Shown: piece after piece, positions 6,001 through 54,000 of the stretch
Position numbering within the stretch: position 1 is the stretch's first letter
Layout: each line of letters opens with the position of its first letter
Made by a program: the position numbers
DNA from: Octopus vulgaris
Lineage: Eukaryota
DNA: 64,000 nt
Reading direction: 5' to 3'
Assembly: GCA_951406725.2 (NCBI GenBank)
Contig: OX597821.1
Span: forward strand, 65,348,001 to 65,412,000

Positions 6001-9000
6001 TCTATATAAGAAATCCTGCATAGTGAGAATTCGTCGAGGAAGCGGAGGCCTACCACACGCCGATGATAGGCAATACACCTTGAAACCATGGTCCGTGTGT
6101 GGTTTCCGCTTCATCGGGGAATTACCTCCCTTTGCAGGTTTAGGGCACCGTGACGGTGTCGAGCCTTTCTGGTGACGTCGATGTTCGCCTGGGGCTAAAT
6201 GCAACAGTAACACCCCCACCACCCTGCCCTGTCCCTAGCCATATTCAGATGGCTTTAGTCCCTTATGTTATCGAGCAGTTACTGTCTATATCTCTTTTAG
6301 AGAATTATTATTGCTTTCGAACAGATTTTCGAAATCAGCAAATGTATTTTGCTTGAAAATCTATATAAGAAATCCTGCATAGTGAGAATTCGTCGAGGAA
6401 GCGGAGGCCTACCACACGCCGATGATAGGCAATACACCTTGAAACCATGGTCCGTGTGTGGTTTCCGCTTCATCGGGGAATTACCTCCCTTTGCAGGTTT
6501 AGGGCACCGTGACGGTGTCGAGCCTTTCTGGTGACGTCGATGTTCGCCTGGGGCTAAATGCAACAGTAACACCCCCACCACCCTGCCCTGTCCCTAGCCA
6601 TATTCAGATGGCTTTAGTCCCTTATGTTATATATATATATATATATATATTCCCGCATGACAAGTGCTTGAATATGTGTGCGTGCGTGTGTACATGCATA
6701 CATACATACATATATACATACATACATACAAACATACATATATACATACATATATATATATATGGGCTGGTGACACAAACTTTCATTCACACTTTGAATT
6801 TAGTGGTACTGGTAATGCTTTGGCTCGCTCTGACACTGAGTTGAGATAATGCCTTCTAGTATCTCAAAATTTAATATACAATTATTCATAATTGTAGTAT
6901 CCTACGCCGATGAGAAAAGAAGTTTGGGTAAGGTAGAATTTTCTAATTCTTATGCTTTCCTAAAACTTGATTTCGAAACGTACGTCCGTAGGTAACTTAA
7001 AATTGTATGATAGATTGCCGTCATTTCATTCTTTCTTACCTGTCTGTGTTTGCCTTTCAAGTGCTGTGTTTTTACTGAGACCTCCCTTTTAGTAGAAGGA
7101 ATAGCTAAATCTCTTTGACTGCTATTTCTAAATTCGGTGTGTGGTGAGGCAATTTGTTGCTAAACCCTTAATTGCTTAGTATATATATATATATATATAT
7201 ATATATATATATATATATATATATATATATATATATATATATGTATGTATATGTATATATGTCCACACATACATACGAATATACTGTATGTATGTATTGG
7301 TAATACAATTAAATGTAGTATTTAATGCATAAACACCCACATACATATGCATAAATATATACGCAGACGCTCATATCCATGTGTGTGTGTGTGTTTCAGC
7401 GTATCTGTGTACGTGTGTATCTGACTCAGATGAGTAGGGTTCCATGCTGACGTATGCTAATCAATAGAATACTAGAACACAATGGCGTCTACTATGAATT
7501 TCATAGAAGTAGGTAGAAAATAGAAGTAAAGGTTGTCGTCAGCGATAGAAAATTAAATCACACATTTGGTTATATATTGTCTACACATAAGATTCTGTAA
7601 TCGGATGTGTTCAACAGAATTGTTTGCTGTCTTACTTCTAGCTATTTCCAATCGTTCAGTACAACAGGCGGGATTCTCTTTTTTTTCTTTATTTTTTAAT
7701 CTGGTATGTCTGAGTGTAGGTATCCTAGTGTTTTGTTGTTTGTGGAATAGATAGTCACCATGACGACGACCACCACCACGACCACGACGTAGACGACGAC
7801 AAAGGTGGTGGTGATGGTGGTGCTGCTATGGCTGATGCTGATGACGGTGGTGAGAATATATGACGATATATATAAATAAATATATATATATATATATCCT
7901 TTCTACTAAAGGCACAAGGCCAGAAATTTAGGGGGAGGAGGAGACAAGTCGATTACATCGACTCCAGTGCGTAACTGGTACTTAATTTATCGACCTTGAA
8001 AGGATGAAAGGCAAAGTCGACCTCGGCGGAATTTGAACTCATAACGTAAGGACGGACGAAATCCTGCTAAGCATTTTGCCCGGTGCGCTAACGATTCTGC
8101 CAGCTCATGTGTGTGTTAGTGTGTGCGCATGCGCGTGGCATTAGAAGACGGTGTTTCCCAGAAAACTCAGCAAGAACACCCCTATACTCTTCTACTCCAG
8201 AGAATGTTAGAGGATTTTACACAAACACACAACTCTGATGACAATGCTTCCTGCAGCAGAAACAGCTGTAAGCTAATGAGGGTGATTACGTGACTCCTGT
8301 TATTTCGCCATTTAGTAATTGTTATTATGCTCGATATTCGCCTAATGCTTTATTCTTAAGCAATCACTGGAAATATGTGGACCGTGGGACATTTTAAATG
8401 ATAGGATTATCGAAAAATTACGTTGAATTTTACCAGTAGACTCATGCGACCCACTTCTCGTGAAAGGTTTCTCGTGTGTGTGTGTGTATGTATGTATGTA
8501 TGTATATATGTATGTATATATATATGTACATACACGCATACACACACGCGCGCACTCACGTATCCACGCATGCACGCACCCACACTCACTTGTATGCATG
8601 TATTAATCATTTACTATGTAAATATTCACTTCGACACTTTACTGTAAAGTTTTAATAAACAAACATTGAGCAGCACCCAGTACAATGTTAAATTGCTGAC
8701 ACGTGTATGTGTGTTTGCGTATATATATATATATATACAAATATTATGCATATACAAATATATACAAAATGGAGAAAACTTTTGATCAACAAACAAACAA
8801 ATTGTCCAACATCGGTGAATTATTTTTTAATACAAAACATAACATTTCTTACGGCCGTTTCGTCTTCCAATGTCAGTCGGCGGTTACAAAGAAAATTCCG
8901 AAAATAATATTCATCATCTTTATAGAACATTCGATCTAGTACATGGAGCTTCATCAGAGTGAATACAAATACAGAAAATAAAAGAAGGGAAGAGGGAAGA

Positions 9001-51000: not shown

Positions 51001-54000
51001 CGAAATGAAATCATGTAGATGTTAATAACGGAAGGGACGGAGTGACAGTGGCCGTGGTAGTAATGGTAGTGGTGGTAGTGTTGTTGGTGGTGGTGGTAGC
51101 AGTGTTGTTGGTTGTGGTTGTGGTGTGCAATGATGCTTGCAATGAAAGCACGACCAAGGAGGAAGAAAAGAGGATACACTGAAAATAATATTGGCAAAAG
51201 AACGAATAGCACAATAATAATAATAATAATAATAATAATAATAATAATAATAATAATAATAATAATAATAATAATAATAATAATAATAATGATAATGAAT
51301 AAATGAATAGATAGATAAATAGATGAGTTTATTGCCCACAGAAACAGTATATATATATATATATATATGTATATATATATATATATATATATATATAATA
51401 TATATATATATATATATATATATATATATATATATATATATATATATATATATATATATATATATATATATATATATATATATATATATATATATATATA
51501 TATATATATATATATATATATATATATATATATATATATATATATATGTATATGTATATACGCATATATATGTAATATATATTTGCATGTATGTATATTT
51601 TGTCTATGTGCGTGTGTAGATGTTATTTCTATTGTCTCGTTCGAAAAGTTGTAAAGATATTAAAAGCCAAGTCCAACAATATCATTAACAACGATAACAA
51701 CAGCAAGAAGAAGAAGAAAAAAAAATATATGAATAAGCATAAAATGTAATAATATTAATTCTGCTTGTTCCCGTTGTTCGTTGTTATCTTTCTCATTATT
51801 ACATATATCAGGTTATACTATAAGCAAAAGTAGTTTTTACTGTTGTTGTTGTTCTTCTTCTTCTTCTTGTTGATTTTGTTGTAGAAATTGATGTCAGTTT
51901 CTGCTCCGGTGACTGTCCACTTATTGTTACCCATGTACGTACGTCTGATGTACAGCTGTTCTTCCAATCGACACCGGTGATCTTTATTTTTTAAACCTTA
52001 TTGCTTTCTTTCTTTCTTTATTTATTTATTTCTTTCTCTCTTTCTTTTTTTTCTTCCCTTCTTTCTCTCTTTCTTTCTTTCTTCCTTTCTTCCTTTCCTC
52101 CTTTCTTTCTTCCTTATTTCTTTCTGTCTTTCTTTTCTTCTTTGTTTGTTTGTTTCTTTCTTTATTTATTTCATTTAGAAAGAATGGGGAAGAAACAGTG
52201 CTAGGATTATTATTATTATCATGATGATGATGATGATCATCATCAACATCATCAACATCCTCCACCTCCTCTTCATCATCATCATCACCACCACCACCAC
52301 CAACAACAACAACACCACCACCACCAACACCACTATCATCATCATCATTATCATTATTATTATTATTATTTTTGTTATTATTTTTATTATTATTATTATT
52401 ATTATTATTATTATTATTATTATCATCATCATCATCATCATCATCATCATCATCATCATCATCATCATTATTATTAGCTCGCCGGGCAAAATGCTGAGCA
52501 GCATTTCATCTGGCACCACGTTCTGAGTTCAAATGTCACCGGGATCGACTTTACCTTTTTCATCCTTTCGGGGTCGATGAATGAATTAGCAGTTACGCAC
52601 TGGGGTCGATGTAATGGACTGGTCCCTTCCCCCACAAAATTCCAAGCCTTGTTCCTATAGTAGAAAGGATTATCATTATTGTTATCATCATCATCATCAT
52701 CATGGTTATTACTTTTTTTTTTTTTACTTGTTTCAGTCATTTGACTGCAGCCATGCTAGAGCATCACCTTTAGTCGAGCAAATCGACTCCAGGACTTATT
52801 CTTTGTAAGCCTAGTACTTATTCTATCGGTCTCTTTTGCCGAACCGCTAGTGTTACGGGGACGTAAACACACCAGTATCAATTGTCACGTGATGTTGGGG
52901 GGGGGACAAACACAGACACACAAACACACCCACACACACACACAAACACACACACACACACACACATATATATATATATATACATAAAATCACAATAAGG
53001 GTGAAACAATTGAATATTAATTAATAACATCAATTTAAAACACCAAGTGGCCTAGCGTAAAAAAATCTGTGATACAATAAAAATTATTAATACAAGTAAT
53101 AAGAGAGAGACCACATATGGTCACTCTAACGCTAGAAATAGATCCGCAAAGGGAATCCACCACTAAAGAATTGTTCTCAAAGCATTAATTCAACACGCCA
53201 AGAATGTAAGCGGGCAGGACAAATGAAAAATAACGAAAAAATAGATTAACTCTATACAATTGTTTCATCGTTAATAGATTGTGTAATTTTACTTACACAA
53301 TCATTTTCGAATCCTCAGTAGAGTATATCAAAATTATAATTTACAGAACCGAACGCCATAATCCATACGAAGCCGAGCAAAGGCGAACGGCACAGCCGAT
53401 TATATTTGCAGTTATGTTCAAATATCCTCATTCCTGGTGCGTTGAAAATACGGATGTAAATACTACCCCAGTAATTTACTGCCGGTTCGAGAACATATTA
53501 ATTTATAATTAAAATCACAATAAGGGTGAAAAAATTGAATATTAATTAATAACATCAATTTAAAACACCAAGTGGCCTAGCGTAAAATTATTAATACAAG
53601 TAATAAGAGAGAGACCACGTTTTGAATTAATGCTTTGAGAACAATTCTTTAGTGGTGGATTCCCTTTGCGGATCTATTTCAAGCGTTAGAATGACCACAT
53701 GTGGGCTCTCTCTTATTACTTGTATATATATACATATATACGATGGGCTTCTTTCAATTTCTGTCTACCAAATCCACTCACAAGGCTTTGTTGAAGACAC
53801 TTGCCCAAAGTGCCATGTGGTTGGTAAGCAAGCTACTTACCACACAGCCATTCCTGCGCCTATGATTATTATTATTATTATTACTATTATTATTATTATC
53901 ATTATTATTATTATTATTATTATTATTATTATTGGTGTTGTTGTTGTTGTTGTTGTTGTTGTTGTTGTTGTTGTTGTTGTTGTTGTTATTATTATTATTA

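Follow-up and report, generated by a model that had tools for sequence, protein, structure and literature searches.

Hammerhead repeats and their insertion architecture

Four families of non-coding repeats matching a hammerhead (HHR) descriptor, termed A2, B (21.7 kb), C (37-38 kb) and D, share two short motifs in a 64-kb window of the Octopus vulgaris genome (GCA_951406725.2, OX597821.1, 65,348,001-65,412,000, forward strand), which is the whole stretch of DNA analysed and the one to which all coordinates refer. Two further HHR families, A1 (4804-6629) and E (27951-28110), lie in the same window without these motifs. The hammerhead repeats have unit lengths of 359-509 bp, and self-comparison of the window showed that their loci are arranged as tandem and head-to-head copies.

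The HHR calls are putative and sequence-based, being made with our own descriptor and a shuffle control: 14 matches were obtained with a helix I of at least 3 bp, against 1.07 per shuffle, and 10 with at least 6 bp, against 0.07. The predicted motifs have the elements of a type I hammerhead (CUGANGA ... GAAA, helices I-III, cleavage after UH) together with a very long helix II. The core is canonical in B (21679-21746, plus strand; CUGAUGA, GUC, helix I of just 3 bp), in C (38061-38167, plus; CUGAGGA, GUA, helix I of 8 bp) and in D (53249-53324, minus; CUGAGGA, GUA, helix I of 6 bp), and the descriptor also found the other C copies at 37178-37284 and 37668-37774 on the minus strand. In A2, A1 and E the core reads CCGANGA, with C at core position 4; the A2 motif (6901-6992, plus) has CCGAUGA, with C for U at that position, a helix I of 6 bp and GUC. 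Rfam gave no hammerhead at the gathering score, and searches of the C and B sites at E<=10 gave none either.

A2 consists of precisely one unit (6764-7179, plus), flanked by two (TA)n-type runs, with its ends adjoining (TA)>=5. Family C has a 491-nt period and consists of 1.8 units plus an inverted arm: a full unit (36980-37470, minus) stands in tandem with a 5'-truncated one (37471-37873, minus), followed by a head-to-head arm (37874-38290, plus) whose end, ...GATTGTGAT, adjoins (AT)n. Identity is 98.8% between the tandem copies (36980-37383 and 37471-37873) and 99.3% between the inverted ones (37053-37469 and 38290-37876). The D composite (52986-53725, minus), with TA runs at both ends, comprises an inverted fragment, a partial tandem copy and a full unit; here the inverted pair (53090-53197 and 53725-53618) is 95.4% identical and the tandem pair (52970-53114 and 53495-53618) 81.4%. 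Family A1 contains 4.1 copies of a 359-bp unit and an inverted pair (4802-5148 and 5612-5956) of 99.4% identity. Family B is a single unit with an inverted terminal fragment (21439-21483, minus), which is identical at 27 of 31 positions to the reverse-complemented C tail. Thus, a partial tandem copy (pseudo-LTR) with an adjoining inverted copy is present in A1, C and D, with an inverted fragment in B, and in the composite loci one arm outreaches the other by about 75-95 nt. A (TA)>=5 run was found within 6 nt of 10 of the 12 composite ends, against a background of 4.65% of window positions that overlap such a run or are no more than 3 nt away from one.

No ORF of at least 120 aa was detected within the units apart from repeat-frame artefacts, and the longest stop-to-stop frame (287 aa) lies in low-complexity DNA. 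Reverse transcriptase (RT) and GIY-YIG domains were absent from all 40 ORFs of the window scanned with Pfam, so that the window holds no autonomous Penelope-like element (PLE), and such an element was rejected as an identity for these loci, which have no ORF with RT and GIY-YIG.

The four families had been described in an earlier note as otherwise unrelated, which was an overstatement. B and C are clear homologues (local score z 6.2, reached by 0 of 200 shuffles; semi-global z 8.3, 0 of 150), and in their alignment the B and C HHRs fall at the same point. Weak colinearity was found for C and D (z 3.4, 1 of 150 shuffles) and for A2 and B (z 3.2, 1 of 150), and other small blocks, GGAATTRMT upstream of motif 1 among them, are colinear as well. 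Across the alignments, overall identity amounts to about 50-56%, near the level of unrelated AT-rich sequence, and a profile of B and C found neither A2 nor D. As B and C are sisters, the sample of four families from one 64-kb window represents fewer than four independent lineages.

Motif positions and pairing

Motif 1 was present downstream of the HHR and in HHR sense at each of the four sites where it had been reported, starting 128, 64, 75 and 105 nt from the cleavage site in A2, B, C and D. It reads TTTGACTGCTATTTCTAA in A2 (7114-7131, plus), with three mismatches to the C version; TTTGGACTGTTCTTTCTAG in B (21807-21825, plus); TTTGGCTGTTATTTCTAG in C (38234-38251, plus), with copies at 37092-37109 and 37584-37601 on the minus strand; and TTTGCGGATCTATTTCTAG in D (53132-53150, minus), where a decayed inverted copy (53665-53683, plus) has CAAG in place of CTAG. 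When the C version was used to search the whole window with up to three mismatches, six matches were obtained against 0.04 expected, a number reached by 0 of 100 shuffles. These were the A2 and B sites, the three C copies and a look-alike at 40777 (minus) with no HHR nearby; each of the other five is on the strand of an HHR, 64-128 nt downstream of it. The D copy is too diverged for this search and was missed, although the 9-mer TATTTCTAG is identical in it. This word has five occurrences in the window: in the three C copies, in D and at 27201 (minus), again with no HHR nearby.

Motif 2 was likewise found on the plus strand at the three sites reported, in B (21465-21479, inside the inverted fragment), C (36996-37010) and D (53041-53055), and second copies, which had gone unlisted, were located at 37488-37502 in C and 53566-53580 in D, also on the plus strand. 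The search gave six matches against 1.45 expected, one of which (58314) is unrelated, and six were reached by 2 of 100 shuffles. Both motifs are more frequent than expected by chance. In an unbiased search, the best word common to the four HHR-downstream regions was compared with 200 shuffles. At k=18 the reported motif 1 was recovered with 12 mismatches in total (2 of 200 shuffles as good), whereas the result was weaker at k=8 (19 of 200), k=10 (106), k=12 (7) and k=15 (48).

In C and D, motif 2 lies on the strand opposite the HHR, a point missed in the earlier note, in which the motifs were treated as two separate signals. Read on the HHR-sense strand, motif 2 supplies the 3' strands of two helices, P2 and P1, in both families, and in C (minus strand) also the start of a hairpin, P3. 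The minus strand of the B inverted fragment likewise holds the P2 3' strand (CAUACUAGA), the P1 3' strand (CCAC) and hairpin P3. From the sequences, each motif appears to provide one strand of a single covarying helix that has a conserved bulge, which is a new point.

In P2, U-CUAG-N4 at the end of motif 1 can base-pair with the N4-CUAG of reverse-complemented motif 2, and pairing within families involves 8, 9, 9 and 8 of 9 positions. The inner N4 is different in every family (AUUC, UAUG, UGGG, CGU), with complementarity kept: 15 of 16 inner pairs form within families compared to 19 of 48 across families. Among the other CTAG pairs in the window (n=170), the inner flanks are complementary at four of four positions in 4 and at three of four in 7, and the P2 8-mer of each family is almost confined in the window to its two partner sites. 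In A2, CUAA/UUAG replaces the CUAG/CUAG of B, C and D, both strands being altered. At the outer position, C and D have U-G and B has U-A, consistent with an RNA of HHR polarity.

The A2 strands lie at 7127-7135 (U-CUAA-AUUC) and, near the 5' end of the unit, at 6796-6804 (GAAU-UUAG-U, the counterpart of reverse-complemented motif 2), both on the plus strand; they pair at 8 of 9 positions, and the 8-mer has three sites in the window, two of them being the helix strands. The duplex of the A2 P2 3' strand with the 3' region has an energy of -23.9 kcal/mol, as low in 0 of 500 shuffles, whereas the duplex energies of B, C and D were no better than those of shuffles (equalled by 44, 31 and 65 of 500). 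P2 of A2 is not part of the circular minimum free energy (MFE) fold, where motif 1 pairs with an upstream GGAAUAGC block, an alternative (GGAAU/AUUUC) that could form in all four families. In C and D, the circular MFE fold retains P2, P3 and the hairpin P4 in a generally paired molecule. In B, the helix would join motif 1 of the plus-strand copy (P2 5' strand, 21821-21829) to motif 2 of the adjoining inverted fragment, and is thus proposed for a template RNA rather than for one contiguous transcript.

P1, which is absent in A2, pairs at 4 of 4 positions in each of B, C and D and has one compensatory column; in B, its 5' strand (GUGG, 21803-21806, plus) pairs with the CCAC at 21471-21474 (minus). 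Between the 5' strands of P1 and P2 lies a bulge of 14-23 nt (21807-21820 in B) that holds the conserved core of motif 1, for which no consistent pairing partner was found elsewhere in the units. The loop closed by P2 measures 73 nt in C and 69 nt in D; in A2 it would be 76 nt with the unit ends joined. Hairpin P4 was significant in C (37065-37086, minus, with copies at 37557-37578, minus, and 38257-38278, plus; z -4.0, 0 of 200 shuffles) and in D (53104-53127, minus; z -3.65, 1 of 200), but not in B (21832-21854, plus; z -1.02) nor, taken alone, in A2, where it is a two-part stem (7143-7166, plus; z -0.88). P3 spans the tandem junction in C (37456-37492, minus; GGUGGC, A-run ... U-run, GCCACC) and lies at 53000-53044 (minus) in D, with a second copy at 53525-53569 (minus).

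RNAalifold on C and D gave 19 pairs, five of them with changes on both sides. Pairing is complete in this consensus (38 of 38 cells) and drops to 37-47% with the partners slid, the structure having been derived from the same two sequences on which it was tested. Matches of a covariance model built from C and D were limited to the C and D copies. The GC content of the RNA domain is 33-38% (window, 36.6%), and the copy ends fall within the domain or just past it.

Relation to known retroelements

Animal retrozymes are abundant: in the tissues studied, some make up about 1% of total RNA. In the accounts of the metazoan non-LTR retrozymes (Cervera & de la Pena 2020, PMC7229834; PMC7761336), these are small AT-rich repeats in tandem that carry a type I hammerhead and code for no protein, and their copying is attributed to a helper retroelement, probably a PLE. 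The repeats in the window resemble them in the predicted hammerhead, the lack of coding capacity and a GC content below 50%, with tandem copies at A1, C and, in part, D, but differ in unit size (about 170-400 nt in those accounts), in the long helix II and the C at core position 4 of three families, and in that several loci are single or head-to-head rather than long arrays. Recognition of the RNA by the RT is presented as required but uncharacterised in PMC7229834, and according to the 2020 review by the discoverers (PMC7761336) the repeats have no conserved motif from which the helper could be told, whereas here a bulged helix appears common to four families. Retrozymes are proposed as PLE derivatives in a recent preprint (Li, Clavereau & Pollet 2026, 10.64898/2026.07.22.740005), which ties both groups together and leaves the mechanism open.

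PLE insertions are reported to contain partial tandems with an adjoining inverted copy, and those of Neptune and Naiad to favour (TA)n (Craig et al. 2021, PMC8557442). The loci described here share both features, and also resemble the PLE pseudo-LTRs of that study and of the 2026 preprint in having one longer arm, like the reported 'tail', and an HHR near the 3' part. They differ in the length of the extra stretch, for which 30-40 bp was reported, and in having no ORF with RT or GIY-YIG. Plant LTR retrozymes (PMC4918200; PMC7761336) are also non-autonomous and ribozyme-bearing, and their non-ribozyme cis signals reveal the helper, but those described are a tRNA primer-binding site and a polypurine tract, and nothing of that kind was found here. 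As concerns the domain itself, its position is reminiscent of another class of elements.

SINE-LINE pairs share a 3' stem-loop that is recognised by the LINE reverse transcriptase in LINEs of the stringent type. The likeness consists of a short sequence and structure conserved in a non-autonomous element beside the start of reverse transcription, followed by a simple repeat. In contrast, the putative partner here is of PLE type, the conserved element is a bulge in a long-range helix instead of a terminal hairpin loop, and the strands of the A2 helix are at opposite ends of the linear copy.

Candidate role of the bulged helix

The earlier note had proposed that the motifs are cis signals for a common partner. 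What stands of this is that they are real, conserved and near copy ends beside (TA)n; what does not is that they are separate or that the families are unrelated. The reading is a reasonable one because the loci carry the published PLE insertion architecture. On the sequence evidence, we moderately favour the explanation that the four loci are diverged lineages of one non-coding, hammerhead-bearing, PLE-derived group resembling the animal non-LTR retrozymes, themselves probably non-autonomous derivatives of PLEs, and that the bulged helix is a cis element for the RT of a helper. Tandem and head-to-head copies in (TA)n runs are what PLE-type target-primed reverse transcription typically yields. 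On the HHR-sense strand, a single RNA domain would contain both motifs: helix P1 (4-5 bp); on the 5' strand, the bulge ending in the core UUUGRCUGYUMUU; P2 (8-9 bp), formed by U-CUAG-N3-4 from the end of motif 1 and N3-4-CUAG-R from the start of reverse-complemented motif 2; the two-part hairpin P4 inside the roughly 70-nt loop closed by P2; and, after P1, hairpin P3, starting with the GGUGG of motif 2.

As the motifs lie where copies end, they may be a handle for copying by a helper retrotransposon. We infer that the RT of a helper PLE would bind the bulged helix, select the RNA through it and start copying beside a nicked (TA)n target; the paired parts would be free to covary and the bulge sequence would stay constant because a protein reads it. 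That the P1/P2 helix with its invariant core is the missing retrozyme cis element, on which a PLE RT docks so that cDNA starts at nicked (TA)n, is put forward tentatively. If so, docking would occur on circular or multimeric RNA, a single lineage of PLEs in this genome would have the domain at its 3' end as well, which would name the helper, and copies that start and end within or just past the domain would be explained. A conserved sequence in a covarying helix beside copy ends would be a concrete, mutable candidate for helper recognition; if the domain is merely structural or residual, the finding reduces to the description of one diverged retrozyme group.

The fold could be real but serve the RNA itself, by compaction or stability, by positioning the ends for a host tRNA ligase, or as a hammerhead switch. 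This we consider rather unlikely. For the circRNAs of retrozymes, a high degree of self-pairing has been predicted (PMC7229834, PMC7761336), and the circular folds of C and D are generally paired, but general compaction gives no account of a 13-14-nt unpaired core kept across families while the flanking helices change, and the clustering of copy ends at the domain points to copying, not to stability. A switch could be envisaged in C, where the 5' strand of HHR helix I recurs in motif 1 as AUUUCU, a possible competitor for the 3' strand of that helix, but this resemblance is not seen in A2, B or D. Simple descent is improbable as the whole explanation, with the motifs being the slowest-decaying remnants of one ancestor and having no present function: the homology of B and C, the weak colinearity of C-D and A2-B and the other small blocks agree with it, but neutral decay would not preserve complementarity while changing both strands, as in the inner pairs of P2 and the five compensatory pairs of C and D, and the motif keeps 9/9 and 15/18 positions against an overall identity near background.

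Quite improbable, too, are signals acting at the level of DNA, either an internal promoter (Pol III A and B boxes, Pol II initiator) or a site bound by the endonuclease at the target. PLE pseudo-LTRs are reported to contain promoters. An internal promoter of Penelope is mentioned in PMC8557442, and the plus strand of C motif 2 agrees with the A-box consensus given in PMC8969392 at 8 of its 9 specified positions. However, the A box is matched at 6/9 in B and 7/9 in D and its strand is antisense to the HHR, the best B box (4-6/9) is at background, 6 being reached by 23% of random 50-nt windows, and ARAGORN found 0 tRNA-like genes, so that the promoter reading of the earlier note was not upheld; a protein-binding DNA site should also keep its sequence rather than covary with a partner 70 nt off. 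A tRNA-derived SINE with a Pol III type 2 promoter was rejected on the same A-box, B-box and ARAGORN results. Chance resemblance in AT-rich, repeat-rich DNA would fit the weak word test at several lengths and the look-alikes at 40777 and 27201, but is very improbable given the excess of motif 1 over expectation, its placement downstream of the HHR on the HHR strand, and paired flanks that are specific to each family.

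Hammerhead-like families and their relationship

The window is AT-rich (GC 36.6%), with microsatellites and short repeats throughout and no long ORFs; a Pfam scan of its ORFs gave nothing relevant, an RT (reverse transcriptase) or GIY-YIG domain being found in none of 40. Hammerhead ribozyme-like motifs (HHRs) were located with our own type I descriptor, defined by a C[U/C]GANGA core, GAAA, a helix III closed by U, H at the cleavage site and a helix I of at least 3 bp. The descriptor gave 14 matches, compared to 1.07 per dinucleotide shuffle, and 10 compared to 0.07 when helix I was set to at least 6 bp. 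These matches make up six families of small repeats, A1, A2, B, C, D and E. A1 consists of a 359-bp tandem (5149-6630) plus an inverted copy (4802-5148), and the HHRs of the other families lie at 6901-6992 (A2), 21679-21746 (B), 28033-28078 (E), 37178-37284(-), 37668-37774(-) and 38061-38167(+) (three copies of C) and 53249-53324(-) (D). A2, B, C and D have a very long helix II, helix I of B has only 3 bp, and core position 4 is C, not U (CCGANGA), in three of the six families (A1, A2 and E; sites 5020-5065, 5338-6458, 6901-6992 and 28033-28078). When the whole window was compared with Rfam, no match reached the gathering score, and at E≤10 no hammerhead was present among the best 150 of 424 matches, nearly all of them microRNA models on TA repeats. 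At E≤10 the HHR region of C gave no match and that of B two weak unrelated matches, with no hammerhead; the C domain gave six weak unrelated matches.

The A1 locus (4762-6650) is a very young array flanked by (TA)n at either end, with 4.1 copies of the 359-bp unit (99.9% identity) and an inverted arm of 347 bp (4802-5148). Motif 1, the TTTG(G)-type sequence treated below, is absent from A1, which has the HHR arms and a few colinear words in common with A2. E (27951-28110) is a short palindromic element beside (TA)n, which carries a 46-nt hammerhead-like motif in one arm (CCGACGA core, helix I of 8 bp) and neither motif 1 nor motif 2, CACCA(A)GYGGYCTAG.

The families had been described in the earlier note as otherwise unrelated, which does not hold for all of them. 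B and C are homologous: one block of 57 nt, 5' of the HHR, and another of 31 nt, surrounding motif 2, are common to them, with local scores of z 6.2 in both orientations (0/200 shuffles) and a semi-global z of 8.3 (0/150). Weak colinearity was detected for C-D (z 3.4) and A2-B (z 3.2), with one of 150 shuffles as good in each case, and the C-D alignment contains ordered islands: the HHR core, GAATTAATG, motif 1 and motif 2. The alignment of A2 with C or D was at background. An nhmmer profile of B+C found copies of B and C only, and neither A2 nor D. A covariance model (R1) from C+D found copies of C and D only, and neither A2 nor B, the B fragment appearing at E 5.6. Colinear exact 7-mers were matched by 1/200 shuffles for A1-A2, HHR arms included, and by 6/200 for B-D; for the other pairs they were mostly not significant (16-96/200 shuffles as good). 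MAFFT alignments of whole units and of 3' regions misaligned D and were kept out of the counts. Full-length alignment as a single diverged family was found for B-C, but not for the other pairs. On these results, the families are best seen as lineages that have diverged within one broad group and whose conservation is mostly limited to a few islands.

Conserved sites of the two motifs

Inspection of the sequence confirmed motif 1 at all four sites where it had been noticed, 7114, 21807 and 38234 on the plus strand and 53132 on the minus strand. With its C version and up to three mismatches, six matches were found in the window compared to 0.04 expected, corresponding to A2, B, the three C copies and 40777(-), the last without an HHR nearby. 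The D version is more diverged, with the exact 9-mer TATTTCTAG in common, of which there are five sites in the window (the three C copies, D and 27201(-)). When the four regions behind the HHR were searched without bias for the word that they best share, the same motif came out at k=18, equalled by 2/200 shuffles; other lengths gave weaker results, with 19/200 shuffles as good at k=8, 106/200 at k=10, 7/200 at k=12 and 48/200 at k=15. The start of motif 1 lies 128, 64, 75 and 105 nt downstream of the cleavage site in the four families, and its end lies 48, 54 and 39 nt short of the copy end in A2, B and C(+). Therefore, its placing is steadier with respect to the copy end than to the ribozyme.

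The reported occurrences of motif 2 were likewise recovered, with extra copies at 37488 and 53566. A search of the window gave six matches compared to 1.45 expected, a number reached in 2/100 shuffles, and the match at 58314 is unrelated.

Motif 1 also has two isolated look-alikes on the minus strand, at 40777-40794 and 27201-27209; neither has a hammerhead, hairpin or partner in its vicinity, and both were treated as chance or very old relics. A further candidate, 21524-21545 as an antisense copy, was dropped because it aligns with the 5' region of C in the sense orientation. In all four families motif 1 is preceded, at a distance of 8-32 nt, by a third block, GGAATWRMT (GAATTAATG in D; 7098-7106, 21787-21795, 38206-38214 and 53183-53191). 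By eye, several families also have in common, at the end of the unit or just 5' of the (TA)n tail, a hairpin and then a CCYTTRATTG-like terminal block (CCCTTATTGTGAT-like; 7160-7179, 38274-38290, 52986-53004, 53084-53100 and 6615-6629). A pattern search of the window showed no enrichment of this block at up to three mismatches (24 matches, 26.65 expected); only the C-D match stands out (two mismatches), and the block is kept as a lead.

A probable bulged helix formed by both motifs

On the HHR-sense strand of C and D, motif 2 is present as its reverse complement, about 70 nt downstream of motif 1, and the end of motif 1 with the bases following it is complementary to the start of this reverse complement, forming a helix (P2). 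Both motifs are real, but they appear to be the complementary strands of one structure and not separate signals. P2 pairs U-CUAG-UGGG with CCCA-CUAG-G in C, U-CUAG-CGU with ACG-CUAG-G in D, U-CUAG-UAUG with CAUA-CUAG-A in B and U-CUAA-AUUC (7127-7135) with GAAU-UUAG-U (6796-6804) in A2. Within the families, 8, 9, 9 and 8 of the 9 positions are paired, and the four inner positions covary, with 15/16 paired within families compared to 19/48 across families. Among the 170 other CTAG pairs lying 30-450 nt apart in the window, the inner flanks are complementary at 4/4 positions in four and at 3/4 in seven, and the 8-mer of each family is almost confined in the window to its two partner sites. Duplex energy compared to shuffles was significant in A2 only.

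In B, motif 2 is on the same strand as the HHR. The stretch 21439-21483 was read as the terminus of an inverted fragment, since it matches the reverse-complemented C tail at 27/31 positions and head-to-head copies are the rule at these loci; therefore, the B helix is one that would form in the template RNA, not in a single transcript of the locus. In A2, P2 joins both ends of the linear copy, and with these ends joined its loop would have 76 nt, with 73 in C and 69 in D, a length consistent with a copy permuted from a circular or multimeric template. In the circular MFE fold of A2, motif 1 prefers the upstream GGAAUAGC block over its P2 partner. This alternative pairing, GGAAU of the upstream GGAATWRMT block with AUUUC of motif 1, is possible in all four families and cannot be judged, as both sides are conserved. 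The circular fold of A1 has a long-range helix, UAGGGCA/UGCCCUG, at a comparable place.

Next to P2 is a second helix, P1, with 4/4 pairs in each of three families (GUGG/CCAC in B and D, GCGG/CCGC in C); A2 has no P1. The one compensatory column of P1 is one of the two Y positions in the motif 2 consensus, and the other Y pairs with the U that precedes CUAG (as U-G in C and D, as U-A in B). Between P1 and P2, a bulge of 14, 20 or 23 nt is present on the 5' strand only and ends in the conserved motif 1 core, for which no pairing partner consistent across families was found elsewhere in the units. P1 is followed by a hairpin, P3, which begins with the GGUGG of motif 2, and the P2 loop contains a two-part hairpin, P4, different in sequence in each family and significant in C (z -4.0) and D (z -3.65), but not in A2 (z -0.88) or B (z -1.02). 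RNAalifold on C+D recovered P2, P4 and a small hairpin, with 19 pairs, five of them with changes on both sides. In this consensus structure 38/38 cells pair, compared to 37-47% with partners slid, the structure having been derived from these same two sequences.

Insertion architecture and candidate role

A1, C and D are composites, loci of tandem plus head-to-head inverted copies, and B has an inverted fragment. A (TA)≥5 run adjoins 10 of 12 composite ends, compared to 4.65% of window positions. Copy ends were seen at three sites of the domain: 35-50 nt past the P2 5' strand for A2, B(+) and C(+), within the loop of P3 for C(-) and immediately 3' of P3 for D. The B fragment likewise has its outer end past P3, the exact position being uncertain. 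In the B and C composites, the inverted arm reaches further into the domain than the direct arm. All counts of sites, pairings and ends come from one 64-kb window.

This architecture is like that of published insertions of Penelope-like elements (PLEs), for which a partial tandem (the pseudo-LTR, pLTR), an adjacent inverted copy and an extension at one end are described, Neptune and Naiad elements inserting preferentially into (TA)n (PMC8557442). For animal retrozymes, non-coding ribozyme-bearing retroelements, mobilisation by PLEs has been proposed (PMC7229834), as has an origin from PLE pLTRs (2026 preprint 10.64898/2026.07.22.740005). The elements are members of these known kinds, retrozymes or non-autonomous PLE derivatives. 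According to a 2020 review (PMC7761336), these repeats lack any conserved motif from which the helper might be guessed, and among the papers listed by literature searches none reports a conserved non-ribozyme motif or fold in animal retrozymes. As far as could be seen, a conserved non-ribozyme motif in a covarying helix has not been described before.

The bulged helix may be read by the helper's RT on a circular or multimeric RNA. Synthesis of cDNA would then start in the AU-rich loop or tail beside the helix, from a nicked (TA)n target, and could run more than once around the unit; such multiple rounds would explain the tandem copies and their variable end points. Taken as a whole, a fold common to diverged retrozyme-like lineages, with RT recognition as its putative role, is the reading that we slightly favour. 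The fold itself is probable, and RT recognition, considered as its function, is a tentative candidate.

The same covarying helices with their unpaired core might serve RNA stability, ligation or ribozyme switching, which we consider unlikely. Residual homology without function seems less likely again. A promoter or binding site acting at the DNA level, the former having been suggested in the earlier note, is improbable; in its Pol III form the promoter proposal was rejected together with a tRNA reading, as ARAGORN found no tRNA genes and Pol III boxes were at background. Chance is the least credible.

Other repeats were observed in the window. A SINE-like repeat of about 170-220 bp, which has no relation to the hammerhead elements, is abundant, with many diverged copies (7896-8107, 9551-9980, 14873-15083, 24332-24507, 32248-33274, 41865-42641, 45206-46070, 52474-52684 and 56676-56911), sometimes in tandem (period 170 at 32765-33224, 219 at 42065-42582). 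A second family, of about 400 bp and often ending in (TA)n, is found at 1688-2089, 17476-17926, 26057-26424, 36529-36958, 50086-50619, 52706-52986, 55847-56252 and 60017-60272; two copies are immediate neighbours of the C and D composites, and no hammerhead-like motif was found in this family. A 45-aa open frame at 28346-28483, ending at a GT splice-donor-like site, resembled the N-terminal motif of a Helitron-type helicase, but this was not borne out by Pfam, whose best match (E 0.13) was to an unrelated family. Finally, a GC-rich 70-bp tandem repeat (538-934; 5.7 copies, 92% matches) lies amid AT-rich surroundings.
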